Assembly: GCA_045635225.1 (NCBI GenBank)
Contig: JAZRBV010000060.1
Span: 91,534 to 155,533 of the forward strand
DNA length: 64,000 nt
Source: Eubacteriales bacterium
Lineage (GTDB): Bacteria > Bacillota > Clostridia > Oscillospirales > CAG-272
Direction: 5' to 3'
A program made the translations under genes and the position numbers. The notes beneath the pieces are model-generated. The model was given only the letters and a program-made list of their open reading frames with translations, was not told the origin of the DNA and made no database searches. Shown piece by piece: positions 24,360 through 25,809 of this stretch. How positions within the stretch are numbered: the first letter of the stretch is position 1; each line of letters starts with the position of its first letter.

Positions 24360-24463
24360 ACAAGGCACAGTTTAGTCTGATGTGAGAATAAATCTCACAG
24401 CGGATGCTTTTCGCACCCTGCTTTGGATTATAAGCTAATCAAATTCTTTGCTGTTTGTGCCTT
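24360..24463 (-). ncRNA. Array unit 1
   Basis: + strand ACAAGGCACA...TTGCTGTT-TGTGCCTT. Minus-RNA inner helices: ACAGC/GCUGU, GAUUA/UAAUC, GGGUGC/GCAUCC (contains G-U), GUGAGA/UCUCAC. Confidence 0.55.
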
Positions 24464-24464
24464 C

Positions 24465-24509
24465 CTCATAGCTGTATCTCAGGTTTTCTAGTCCTGCCGG
24501 CACTATGAG
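24465..24509 (-). ncRNA. Closed hairpin module displaying an ACUAGAAAA loop
   Basis: 7-bp closing stem CTCATAG/CTATGAG. Inner stem CAGG/CCTG (24480-24496) has a loop containing the same 10-mer TTTCTAGTCC as the anticodon-like loop of tRNA-like element 1. Confidence 0.5.
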
Positions 24510-24515
24510 TTTTAA

Positions 24516-24588
24516 CGCATCGAGCAGGAATCGAACCTGCGACACCGGGATTTCTAGTCCCCTACTCTACCTACTGAGCTATCGATAC
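24516..24588 (-). tRNA. tRNA-like element 1 (73 nt): canonical acceptor, D and T arms, non-canonical anticodon arm (formal anticodon AGA)
   Basis: GUAUCGA/UCGAUGC acceptor, GCUC-AGUAGGUA-GAGU, GCAGG-UUCGAUU-CCUGC. Anticodon arm is GGGGA-CUAGAAA-UCCCG with a 27-43 G-G clash. Short variable loop and no encoded CCA. Confidence 0.6.
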
Positions 24589-24593
24589 AAATA

Positions 24594-24677
24594 ACAAGGC
24601 AAGTCATCACATCGCCATGTGATTTCGTTTTATTATATGAGACGCTACTCGGAGGCTTAACTTGATGCACTTGCCTT
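24594..24677 (-). ncRNA. Array unit 2
   Basis: + strand ACAAGGCAAGT...TTGATGC-ACTTGCCTT (9-bp P1). Inner hairpin AUCACAU-GGCG-AUGUGAU. Confidence 0.5.
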
Positions 24678-24684
24678 TTAAAAG

Positions 24685-24753
24685 TGGAGGGCGACAGGAT
24701 TTGAACCTGCCTGGAGGATTGGATAACCTTGCTCTTCCATAGAGCCACCCTCC
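24685..24753 (-). tRNA. tRNA-like element 2 (69 nt): perfect acceptor stem and T loop, degenerate D and anticodon arms
   Basis: GGAGGGU/GCCCUCC + A, T arm GGCAGG-UUCAAAU-CCUGUC (6 bp), D loop of only 5 nt. Anticodon arm AAGGU-UAUCCAA-UCCUC has 3 Watson-Crick pairs and A at position 33. Confidence 0.5.
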
Positions 24754-24758
24754 ATATA

Positions 24759-24844
24759 ACAAGGCGCATTTTAACATTGATAAGTGTTGGTAATCTTTCG
24801 ACCCCGCGACTATTCAGAATCTCACTTTTCGCTGTATGCGCCTT
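24759..24844 (-). ncRNA. Array unit 3
   Basis: + strand ACAAGGCGCA...TCGCTGTA-TGCGCCTT. Confidence 0.5.
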
Positions 24845-24867
24845 TAATAAACTTGACTCCTCTTTCT

Positions 24868-24932
24868 ACAAGACACACCTTAATACATATATCTTCAAAA
24901 TCAAAAATAGGAAACATTGCTGTTTATGTCTT
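24868..24932 (-). ncRNA. Array unit 4 (shortest)
   Basis: + strand ACAAGACACA...TTGCTGTT-TATGTCTT. The odd pair is C-A on + and G-U on the minus strand. Confidence 0.5.
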
Positions 24933-24948
24933 AAGAGGAATACTAGAT

Positions 24949-25020
24949 ACAAAGCTTGCGGTATTTCAAATTTACTTTGAGCAATGAGCTTCTAAAAGTT
25001 TTCATTGTCGCAAGCTTCGT
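24949..25020 (-). ncRNA. Array unit 5 (degenerate inner motif)
   Basis: + strand ACAAAGCTTGCG...ATTGT-CGCAAGCTTC. The terminal pair is a G-U only on the minus strand. Confidence 0.45.
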
Positions 25021-25022
25021 TT

Positions 25023-25136
25023 ACAAGATGCATTTTTAAAATCATACAGAGCTTTTCACTCTATTCGTGGCTATTTACTAAGAATAGCTGCTCCTATGTA
25101 GCAAATGATAGATTTCTAAATTGCTGTATGCATCTT
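25023..25136 (-). ncRNA. Array unit 6
   Basis: + strand ACAAGATGCA...TTGCTGTA-TGCATCTT. Minus-RNA inner helix AUACAG/CUGUAU. Confidence 0.5.
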
Positions 25137-25219
25137 TAATATCCAATTTCCTTTGATGCGCAAGGCAATCCTCAAGTCCAATACGAGAGCATTATCAACG
25201 CTTCAATAAAATTGAATTT

Positions 25220-25298
25220 ACAAGACACTATCGCTTCACCTCTGAGTATGCAATTAACATAGCATCGGCATCATAAGTTTGGTTGCTGCTCGTGTCTT
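25220..25298 (-). ncRNA. Array unit 7
   Basis: + strand ACAAGACAC...TTGCTGCTC-GTGTCTT. Confidence 0.5.
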
Positions 25299-25368
25299 TA
25301 TATACTTATCAGCAAGTTAATAAACGTCGGTATAAGTAGACGCCCATTATTAACTGTTAAGTTCATTT

Positions 25369-25451
25369 ACAAGGCACAACCAACTCGCTGAGCGAGTCTG
25401 CGGTTAATCTTAGCAGGATTATGCAGGAACTAACGTTGCTGTATGTGCCTT
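25369..25451 (-). ncRNA. Array unit 8
   Basis: + strand ACAAGGCACA...TTGCTGTA-TGTGCCTT. Inner hairpin CUCGC-UCA-GCGAG. Confidence 0.5.
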
Positions 25452-25522
25452 TTAGCATCAGTGATACTCCAGCTGAACCCGTCCTTATGGACTAATGCTG
25501 ACCTATATGACGCTAAATCTTT

Positions 25523-25675
25523 ACAAGATACTATTTTCACCTGATGGCTCGCGCCATCATCTACTGTGCAGTATTGCAAGATAACCTGGTTACTGACAGG
25601 GTCTCACAATTGCTACACGTGCCAAACACCTTAGTATCAGCCTGAGTTGTGGTCAGTAGTTGCTGTTAGTATCTT
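25523..25675 (-). ncRNA. Array unit 9 (longest, possibly composite)
   Basis: + strand ACAAGATACTA...TTGCTGT-TAGTATCTT. Inner GAUGGC-GCGA-GCCAUC hairpin and a degenerate internal motif copy. Confidence 0.45.
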
Positions 25676-25726
25676 TACATCCCAATCCATGCCACTCAGG
25701 CTACAATTGCCGTCAGGGAGATTGGC

Positions 25727-25809
25727 ACAAGGCACATCTTATTCGGGTTACGAGCCCGACAGCTTCACAGATTTAAGTCTGATGCTCAAGCAATTGCTGT
25801 TTGTGCCTT
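25727..25809 (-). ncRNA. Array unit 10 (first transcribed)
   Basis: + strand ACAAGGCACA...TTGCTGTT-TGTGCCTT. Minus-RNA ACAGC/GCUGU helix and CGGG-CUCGUAA-CCCG hairpin. Confidence 0.55.

Follow-up and report, generated by a model that had tools for sequence, protein, structure and literature searches.

A tandem array of Y-RNA-like units probably partnering a predicted Ro60-like DUF2828 protein encoded beside RtcB in Clostridia

A 64-kb window of DNA from a Eubacteriales bacterium of the Clostridia (contig JAZRBV010000060.1; the window denotes the whole analysed stretch of 64,000 nucleotides) carries on its minus strand a tandem array of ten RNA units, seven canonical and three divergent, which occupies 1.45 kb (25809-24360) upstream of a gene encoding a DUF2828/DUF7788 protein and of the adjoining gene for the RNA ligase RtcB. 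Each unit is built on a handle that consists of a terminal helix, P1, formed by its two ends, and of the motif ACAGCAA on the 5' strand. The array most plausibly encodes polycistronic Y-RNA-like non-coding RNAs (ncRNAs) that partner the Ro60-like protein encoded just downstream, and by analogy with the known Ro60-Y RNA systems the units are probably previously undescribed RNA partners of the DUF2828 family. This combination of a Ro60-like protein, a Y-RNA-like array and RtcB had been put forward in an original prediction made from the sequence of the window alone, and the predicted fold, the genomic linkage and the covariation described below are all favourable to it.

Reading of the minus strand between 24200 and 26000 together with an anchored helix scan recovered the ten units as predicted, each in the form 5'-A-AAG-P1-n(0-2)-ACAGCAA...P1'-CUU-GU-3' with 4-6 bp of P1 scanned and with lengths of 65-153 nt. 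They are interleaved with one tRNA, one tRNA-like element and several closed hairpins that lack the motif. The claim that the stretch holds no credible open reading frame (ORF) stands, the ORFs that overlap the array being merely 62-83 aa long. On the minus strand ACAGCAA occurs six times in the 1.45-kb array and five times in the other 62.5 kb, and the composite 5' half-site AAG-R-N3-9-ACAGCAA is confined to the array within the window. The sense of the RNA, proposed to be minus and co-directional with the flanking genes, follows from the strand-specific motif, from the tRNA and T-loop calls on the minus strand and from the co-orientation with the DUF2828 gene. The G-U wobbles cited in favour of this strand are present in U7, in the hairpin 25516-25452 and in the inner helix of U10, and the overall count of G-U against A-C cases (7 vs 3) is too small to decide the strand alone. 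As another kind of repeat locus, a CRISPR or spacer-repeat array was considered and rejected, as the repeats are short complementary half-sites that differ between units, the lengths vary from 65 to 153 nt and there are no cas genes.

A strict unit was defined as AAG with at least four further pairs closed by CUU and with ACAGCWA within a few bases, and pairing was assessed by anchored pattern scans with permutation controls; the unit interiors (43-287 nt) fit a single covariance model poorly. From 221 de-duplicated units of the homologous loci described below, with a median length of 86 nt (range 43-287), the consensus A(-1, 91%)-AAG-R-Y-R-C-N-N-ACAGCAA...A-rich-N-G-Y-R-Y-CUU-G(87%)-U(60%) was obtained, in which ACAGCAA is conserved to 85-90% per position. 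The handle thus comprises a basal A/G juxtaposition and the pairs AAG/CUU and R-Y-R-C/G-Y-R-Y, which make up a P1 of 7-9 bp, and ACAGCAA lies unpaired on the 5' strand after P1, opposite an A-rich 3' strand. In a test that presupposed no pairing, 244 5' half-sites were collected, and the region 35-300 nt downstream was searched for CUU preceded by an exact reverse complement of the next 5 nt; closure was exact for 144 of the 244, and permuting the 5-mers among sites gave 17.3±3.6 (maximum 27). Positions 4-7 of P1 are Watson-Crick paired in 96-99% of the units, and position 8, which played no part in unit selection, is so paired in 73% with all four pair types represented. Orthologous units of the window and of the related loci L003 and L007 differ by compensatory changes, for example in P1 of U2 in L007. 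The covariation of P1 that had been noticed within the single locus therefore holds across loci, well above both the permutation and the slid-register controls.

Homologous loci were gathered from species-representative genomes (80 loci at 61-79% protein identity, mostly from Clostridia and also from Synergistaceae and others), from metagenomes (80-91% protein identity) and from 82 viral contigs (39-68% protein identity). In 84 loci comprising 824 kb, 247 strict units lie at most 2.5 kb upstream of the DUF2828 gene on the gene strand, five lie elsewhere on that strand and none lies on the opposite strand, so that the units are conserved beside the homologous genes, as the prediction required, with strong specificity of strand and position, and their genomic linkage to DUF2828 genes is exclusive. 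In many loci the last unit ends 20-50 nt before the start codon. Homologues of RtcB are found in 54/84 loci, usually directly downstream of the DUF2828 gene, and homologues of two WYL-family proteins encoded upstream of the array in 57/84 (418-aa protein, co-directional or divergent) and 59/84 (303-aa protein, nearly always beside the first); many of the loci that lack a WYL or RtcB homologue are truncated contigs. The number of independent self-closed units per locus ranges from 0 to 10. Counted strictly, the window has seven units, with a median of two and a maximum of nine among 85 loci, and most phages have 1-4, which indicates that large arrays are a trait of the sub-clade of the window and not of the family. 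The copy number is therefore high, as originally noted, but it is not unique.

The protein encoded downstream is identified by Pfam as DUF2828 and DUF7788, and an AlphaFold2 model built with 54 homologues reached a mean predicted local distance difference test (pLDDT) score of 83. When this model was compared with the PDB by Foldseek, Ro60/TROVE structures accounted for all of the 12 best matches, with alignments that cover the full length (E 3e-8 to 2e-6, template-modelling (TM) score ~0.4-0.55, ~500-560 columns), among them 1yvr, 9kop, 9l5y, 2i91, 2nvo and 9nfa from Xenopus Ro, Deinococcus radiodurans Rsr, Thermus phage phiLo Ro60 and human Ro60, and isolated vWA domains came next. From these full-length matches the DUF2828 protein is modelled as a Ro60-like HEAT-repeat ring with a vWA domain, in line with the Ro60-like neighbour that had been predicted, and it would be the binder of the handle by analogy. 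The gene that adjoins it is indeed rtcB. A 12-bp hairpin with U-tract (22822-22850, minus strand) separates the end of the DUF2828 reading frame from that of rtcB at its start, and it may serve for internal attenuation or for processing. The DUF2828 family is very large, with 7008 clusters at 50% identity.

The same handle is found in phages. Of the viral loci, 80 have 39-47% protein identity, and in 53 of these one or more units are present, mostly immediately upstream of the gene, with 93 units on the gene strand versus nine on the other. A reverse search of viral contigs with AAAGGCACNNACAGCAA gave 121 matches, 67 closed by GUGCCUU and 54 unclosed; a DUF2828 gene was present in the examined flank of 29/67 closed matches, on the same strand in 29/29, versus 2/54 unclosed ones. 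DUF2828 is the only constant neighbour, as several phage loci keep units without RtcB and WYL genes. In GenBank the protein is present in 701 records of cultured phages, typically beside the phage tRNA array, in FelixO1-like, A511/P100-like, Tsamsa-like and cluster-L-type mycobacteriophages, and it is annotated as DUF2828, vWFA, 'RNA-binding protein' or at best 'Ro-like RNA binding protein'. In phages the handle has lineage-specific outer pairs and can be read in unannotated gaps beside the tRNA arrays (Table 1). In the FelixO1-like Escherichia typing phage 1 the tRNA array that lies downstream of the Ro60-like gene has three units in its unannotated gaps, of which the third contains a T-AS-D domain of the YrlA type; the segment 5255-5490, which spans units two and three, is matched by 247 records of FelixO1-like phages and is nearly always unannotated there. 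In the Mycobacterium phage Lumos, where the gene is annotated as 'Ro-like RNA binding protein', the middle unit is YrlA-like and scores 39 bits on the Rfam YrlA model, below the threshold of 69, and for this likeness it ties the new handle to the known YrlA architecture. With the DNA of the window itself, the tRNA was the sole match to GenBank phages. In three bacterial loci (L058, L049 and L037) the DUF2828 gene and its units end a phage-like tRNA array of up to 30 genes, and these loci may be prophages.

Table 1. Positions of the features of the cassette in the window, and units of four phages (L numbers denote loci; units are given 5' to 3').
Feature	Position	Strand	Sequence or evidence
RtcB RNA ligase	21593..22801	-	Pfam RtcB 5e-58; PHROG 1075
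DUF2828/DUF7788 protein, 485 aa from ATG	22854..24311	-	Pfam; PHROG 850 'RNA-binding protein'; AlphaFold2 and Foldseek
U10	24360..24463	-	AAGGCACA-A-ACAGCAA...UGUGCCUUGU; canonical handle
tRNA	24515..24589	-	Rfam and ARAGORN; odd anticodon loop CUAGAAA
U9	24594..24677	-	AAGGCAAGU...ACUUGCCUUGU; GCAUCAA for ACAGCAA (L003: ACUGCAA); divergent
tRNA-like element	24686..24753	-	weak Rfam tRNA-clan match and fold; without handle
U8	24759..24844	-	AAGGCGCAU-ACAGCGA...AUGCGCCUUGU; listed as canonical
U7	24868..24932	-	AAGACAUA-A-ACAGCAA...UGUGUCUUGU; one G-U pair; canonical
U6	24949..25018	-	GAAGCUUGCG-ACAAUGA...CGCAAGCUUUGU; ends CUUUGU; divergent
U5	25023..25136	-	AAGAUGCAU-ACAGCAA...AUGCAUCUUGU; canonical
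U4	25220..25298	-	AAGACAC-GA-GCAGCAA...GUGUCUUGU; divergent (motif variant GCAGCAA)
U3	25369..25451	-	AAGGCACA-U-ACAGCAA...UGUGCCUUGU; canonical
Closed hairpin module without handle	25452..25516	-	UUAGCGUCA...UGAUGCUAA
U2	25523..25675	-	AAGAUACUA-ACAGCAA...UAGUAUCUUGU; P1 AAGAUACUA/UAGUAUCUU; 153 nt; canonical
U1	25727..25809	-	AAGGCACA-A-ACAGCAA...UGUGCCUUGU; P1 AAGGCACA/UGUGCCUU; canonical
Sigma-70-like promoter	25819..25847	-	GTGAAA-17-TAAAAT with TG extension, few bases upstream of U1; conserved in L003, L007, L001
Conserved motif	25844..25865	-	GTTCGCAGCTTTTTTTCCGTGA (GTTCGCARCTTTTTTTCCGTGA); occupies the -35 region of the array promoter
Terminator-like hairpin with U-tract	25858..25883	-	end of the 303-aa gene
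Second WYL-family protein, 303 aa	25868..26779	-	PADLOC WYL 1.2e-8; weak Pfam WCX
WYL-domain protein, 418 aa	26776..28032	-	Pfam WYL 8e-6, WCX 7e-4; PADLOC WYL 4e-11
Bacillus phage Chewbecca	L170		AAGACAC..ACAGCUA/ACAGCAA..GUGUCUUGU
Listeria phage LP-125	L171		three units, AGGAAUC-UA-ACAGCAA...GAUUCCUGU and relatives
Mycobacterium phage Lumos	L172 (KT372003.1) 4470-4760		three units downstream of gene, UGGACNN-n-ACAGCAA...NNGUCCAGU
FelixO1-like E. coli phage (Escherichia typing phage 1)	L173 (KP869100.1) 4707-4775, 5264-5335, 5351-5480		AGACCAA-UU-ACAGCAA...UUGGUCUGG

The units resemble Y RNAs in several respects. They lie on the same strand within a few kb of a Ro60-type gene, their ends pair in a terminal stem with a conserved motif beside an internal loop, their median size of 86 nt (65-153 nt in the window) falls in the range of ~80-130 nt typical of Y RNAs, and tRNA-like domains occur among them as in YrlA. 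Ro60 binds the terminal stem of Y RNAs, while the other end of the RNA tethers or gates. Among the closest described systems is YrlA with its partner Rsr (Rfam RF02553; PMC4201824), likewise an ncRNA of ~80-150 nt encoded on the same strand and few kb from the Ro60-type gene, with ends that pair in a terminal stem by a conserved 5'-strand motif and with the other end tRNA-like; its permuted T-AS-D domain is shared by units of Lumos and of the FelixO1-like phage. In contrast to YrlA, which has the motif GNCGAAN0-1G, the units carry ACAGCWA after a P1 of constrained sequence, the partner is DUF2828/DUF7788 and not a Pfam TROVE protein, and most Clostridial units have interiors with the D, anticodon (AC) and T arms in the order D-AC-T, or simple hairpins. 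The rsr locus of D. radiodurans (Yrn1, Yrn2, tRNA-Asp, RNAs a/b/d) is similar in that small RNAs and a tRNA precede the Ro60 gene, there within one precursor, and Yrn1 has tRNA-like arms in the order D-AC-T with the Ro-binding stem at the acceptor position, like the class of U10 (PMC4201824); that locus encodes ~5 RNAs with a metazoan-like GGUCCGA helix, whereas here there are up to ten units, another handle and RtcB in the operon. A polycistronic Yrn2-tRNA-Yrn1 precursor upstream of rsr as well as the operon rsr-yrlBA-rtcBA were described by Chen et al. (2014, PMC4201824), and in Salmonella the latter, under control of RtcR (PMC7790460), joins a Ro60-type protein, Y-like RNAs and RtcB in one operon, as does the present cassette. 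The Salmonella operon depends on a sigma-54 CARF activator, whereas here a putative regulatory WYL pair stands at a sigma-70-type promoter with a conserved upstream motif, RtcA is lacking and the RNAs precede the protein genes. The Ro60 of Thermus phage phiLo with Yrl1/Yrl2 (PMC12135203) parallels the phage DUF2828 proteins in having a Ro60-like ring and adjacent Y-like RNAs, which in phiLo use CGAA. The phage protein Bas63 gp130 is Ro60-like and encoded beside a tRNA array, like the DUF2828 genes, and an activity against the Ppl defence system has been reported for it; no RNA partner was identified there, and the authors guessed at one of the annotated tRNAs (PMC11482910). By its FelixO1-like relatives gp130 appears to be a DUF2828 homologue, and in such a relative it is the unannotated gaps of that tRNA array that hold the RNAs with the ACAGCAA handle.

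Several observations weigh against the Y-RNA-like interpretation. A scan of the window with Rfam 15 (gathering threshold; E<=10) gave the tRNA and chance-level matches and no Y_RNA, YrlA, GOLLD, ROOL or other family, which agrees with the earlier remark that the consensus was not a recognised one, and the bacterial Y RNA motif GNCGAAN0-1G / GGUCCGA is absent from the units. On the protein side Pfam finds DUF2828 and DUF7788 and no TROVE domain, sequence searches of the PDB by phmmer and by profile returned no match for the DUF2828 protein, and the link to Ro60 comes via a predicted fold with a TM score of about 0.5. A few bacterial loci and 27/80 viral loci have no unit by the patterns used, and 38/67 of the closed matches of the reverse search have no DUF2828 gene in the examined flank, at least two of them from contigs whose DUF2828 gene was found separately. 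Finally, the handle could be recognised by a protein other than DUF2828, e.g., by a processing nuclease. The system thus works like Y RNA-Ro60 but stands outside the described families by its motif, by Rfam and by Pfam TROVE. Rfam 15 has no model for an RNA with the ACAGCAA handle, NCBIfam has no model that matches the DUF2828 or WYL proteins, and the DUF2828 literature found, which consists of plant and tardigrade papers and does not cover Burroughs and Aravind (2016) on RNA repair, describes no RNA partner.

The interiors of the units are tRNA-derived and consist of T-arm-like hairpins, of hairpins with anticodon-like loops or of a whole D-AC-T cloverleaf. Loops of 7 nt of the tRNA type (YU-NNN-RN) occur 137 times in 221 interiors, compared to 15±4 in shuffled and 16 in reversed sequences, a ~9-fold enrichment; ~35 of them are T-loops (UUCGAAU, UUCAAAU) and the remainder are anticodon-like, including CUUUUAA, CUGUCAA, CUGAAAA, CUUCUAA and CUCAUAA, which resemble the loops of Lys, Asp, Phe, Arg and Met tRNAs. 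The gene-proximal unit is often a cloverleaf with D, anticodon-like and T arms, in which P1 and the ACAGCAA internal loop replace the acceptor stem. For 16 such units RNAalifold yields P1 and the three arms with compensatory (double) changes in 17/22 pairs, so that the covariation extends to the D, AC and T arms; 95.2% of the cells pair, compared to 37-46% when the 3' partners are slid, and 0/500 shuffles match any of five measures. In the window U1 contains an anticodon-like hairpin (loop CUUAAAU) and a T-arm-like hairpin, and U10 is a degenerate member of the cloverleaf class, a D-AC-T cloverleaf without acceptor stem. In many arrays ARAGORN reads pseudo-tRNAs with odd anticodons inside the units, and the units of Lumos and of the FelixO1-like phage include the YrlA-type permuted domain. 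When complete tRNAs were sought in the window with Rfam and ARAGORN, only the embedded tRNA (24589-24515) was called, and no unit is a full cloverleaf with a 7-bp acceptor stem.

These tRNA-like interiors allow for a different role, in which the units are substrates of RtcB, that is split, permuted or nicked tRNA-like precursors held by P1 for joining or circularisation, with the DUF2828 protein acting as a chaperone only. P1 does bring the 5' and 3' ends together, RtcB is adjacent in 54/84 loci, some units have the permuted T-AS-D domains, YrlA of M. smegmatis is cut by RNase P and receives CCA (PMC4201824), and RtcB-linked RNA circularisation is reported in Bacillus (PMC10504365). Many phage loci, however, have units and DUF2828 but no RtcB nearby, and the strongly conserved ACAGCAA has no role in such a scheme. 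Nor would joining produce a functional tRNA, given the heterogeneous, often degenerate anticodon-like loops and the lack of acceptor stems. We therefore regard this explanation as improbable, although it is the strongest of the three alternatives considered, all of which are less likely than Y-RNA-like partners of the DUF2828 protein.

All genes of the cassette lie on the same strand in the order WYL (418 aa), WYL-family (303 aa), array, DUF2828 and RtcB. The sigma-70-like promoter of the array is preceded by a highly conserved motif in place of the -35 region, which is also seen in L001, L003, L007, L012 and others; its core of a T-run and CCGTG is present in 27/72 loci and its 8-mers in 36-54/72, at fixed distance to the -10 box. 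The motif persists both in loci with co-directional WYL genes and in those with divergent ones, so that it is a candidate operator for the WYL pair, the putative regulator of the cassette. PafBC-type WYL regulators offer a basis for comparison, as they too are two adjacent WYL-domain proteins with a conserved motif at the -35 position of the target promoter; the likeness of the present pair to PafBC is one of arrangement and not of sequence-level membership, and its putative target is an RNA array with an RNA-repair operon and not DNA-repair genes. In the 49 nt between U10 and the DUF2828 start codon no terminator-like site was seen, and the array, DUF2828 and rtcB would accordingly form one regulated transcript, judged from the sequence.

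This layout is also what a cis-acting 5' leader of the DUF2828-rtcB mRNA would look like, be it an attenuator or a tRNA-sensing, riboswitch-like regulator in place of trans-acting RNAs, as the array follows a promoter-like site and leads up to the start codon without any terminator-like site on the way, and the last unit often ends so close to the gene. Units are, however, also found downstream of the gene or within tRNA arrays (Lumos, FelixO1-like, L002, Chewbecca), they occur as 0-10 independent self-closed elements per locus, no alternative terminator/antiterminator pairing was seen, and the loops of the interiors are anticodon-like and not codon-like, as in tRNA mimics like YrlA, so that a cis-acting leader is judged slightly less probable still than the RtcB substrates. 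Functionless decay of tRNA-derived repeats, be they remnants of pseudo-tRNAs or a small mobile repeat that accumulates near genes for tRNAs and RNA repair, would explain the tRNA-like interiors, the degenerate U4, U6, U9 and U10 and the widely varying unit number. It is nevertheless very improbable, because decaying copies would not maintain a helix of changing sequence, because the handle, which is no tRNA feature, is the best conserved part and is kept by compensatory changes in lineages that range from Clostridia to phages infecting E. coli, Listeria and Mycobacterium, and because the units hardly ever depart from one strand and one position with respect to the DUF2828 gene.

For Y-RNA-like partners of the DUF2828 protein a course of events can be proposed by analogy with Ro60-Y RNA, the rsr precursors and rsr-yrlBA-rtcBA, on which the suggested transcription, processing, binding and repair role of the units rest. 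The array would be transcribed from its own promoter with the conserved motif in place of the -35 box, probably under control of the WYL pair, and readthrough would continue into DUF2828 and rtcB. The embedded tRNA and tRNA-like elements together with host nucleases would cut the precursor into units, which would be trimmed to the protected helix. The DUF2828 ring would then bind the handle in the manner of Ro60 on the terminal stem of a Y RNA, and the variable interiors would present different tRNA-like faces that may tether tRNA-handling enzymes or act as baits together with RtcB in an RNA-damage and repair response. A more speculative extension, which we consider rather unlikely, is that the array encodes a diversifiable panel of tRNA baits, which the Ro60-like ring would hold by their common handle; the baits would serve to decoy or to sense anticodon nucleases and other toxins that target tRNAs, RtcB would rejoin baits or tRNAs that had been cut, fragments would feed back on the WYL regulators and phages would carry the particle beside their tRNA arrays as counter-defence. 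If true, this would constitute a modular RNA-encoded repertoire for the tRNA-cleavage arms race, beyond another Y RNA.

The tRNA and the tRNA-like element between the units were absent from the original prediction. ARAGORN reads the embedded tRNA as Ser(AGA), yet the long variable arm is missing, and its orthologues in six related loci (L003, L011, L014, L017, L030, L031) are tRNA-Phe(GAA) by ARAGORN, with the anticodon loop CUGAAAA in L003. A hairpin 20 nt downstream of the tRNA, CAGGA-CUAGAAA-ACCUG (24480-24496, minus strand), has the same odd loop CUAGAAA. In the tRNA-like element the acceptor, D and T arms are well formed while the anticodon arm is degenerate, and the element is conserved in L003 and L007. 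The inter-unit spacers 25452-25516, 25680-25725, 25300-25366 and 25140-25217 (minus strand) are stable closed hairpins without the ACAGCAA handle and are candidates for separate RNAs or processing signals; in the first of them a G-U pair of the window is G-C in L003.

Directly upstream of the cassette a defence island is located (30290-50262, minus strand), with a type IV methyl-directed restriction enzyme (30290-33451), a ZacA/ZacB/ZacC set (33451-39749) and a type I restriction-modification system with two HsdM genes, one of them fused to an ADP-ribosylglycohydrolase domain (47842-50262). Downstream of rtcB (18260-21479, minus strand) a DUF6809 protein, a 93-aa ORF, a Y-family polymerase (IMS), a YolD-like protein and a LexA-like S24 peptidase repressor are encoded, a block that was not found beside the cassette in other loci save for a weak IMS match of 22% identity in L040. 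A prophage origin was rejected, as the flanks vary among loci and consist here of defence and DNA-repair genes.

The Clostridial cassette composed of the WYL pair, RNA array, DUF2828 and RtcB is the Gram-positive equivalent of RtcR-rsr-yrlBA-rtcBA in Salmonella, expanded to an extreme by its array of ten units. The finding extends well beyond the window, and the DUF2828 family occurs in gut Clostridia and in hundreds of phages, for the most part beside RtcB or tRNA genes. P1 with the ACAGCAA motif provides a candidate RNA partner for a very large protein family, and hundreds of genomes can immediately be annotated with it; at present the tRNA-array gaps in which it lies there bear no annotation. 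The handle makes it testable what the phage and Clostridial Ro60 paralogues bind, how a Ro60-type ring recognises RNA without the canonical motif, whether these RNAs are needed for the reported anti-Ppl activity of Bas63 gp130, and why a Ro60-type particle is so often coupled to RtcB and tRNA genes.

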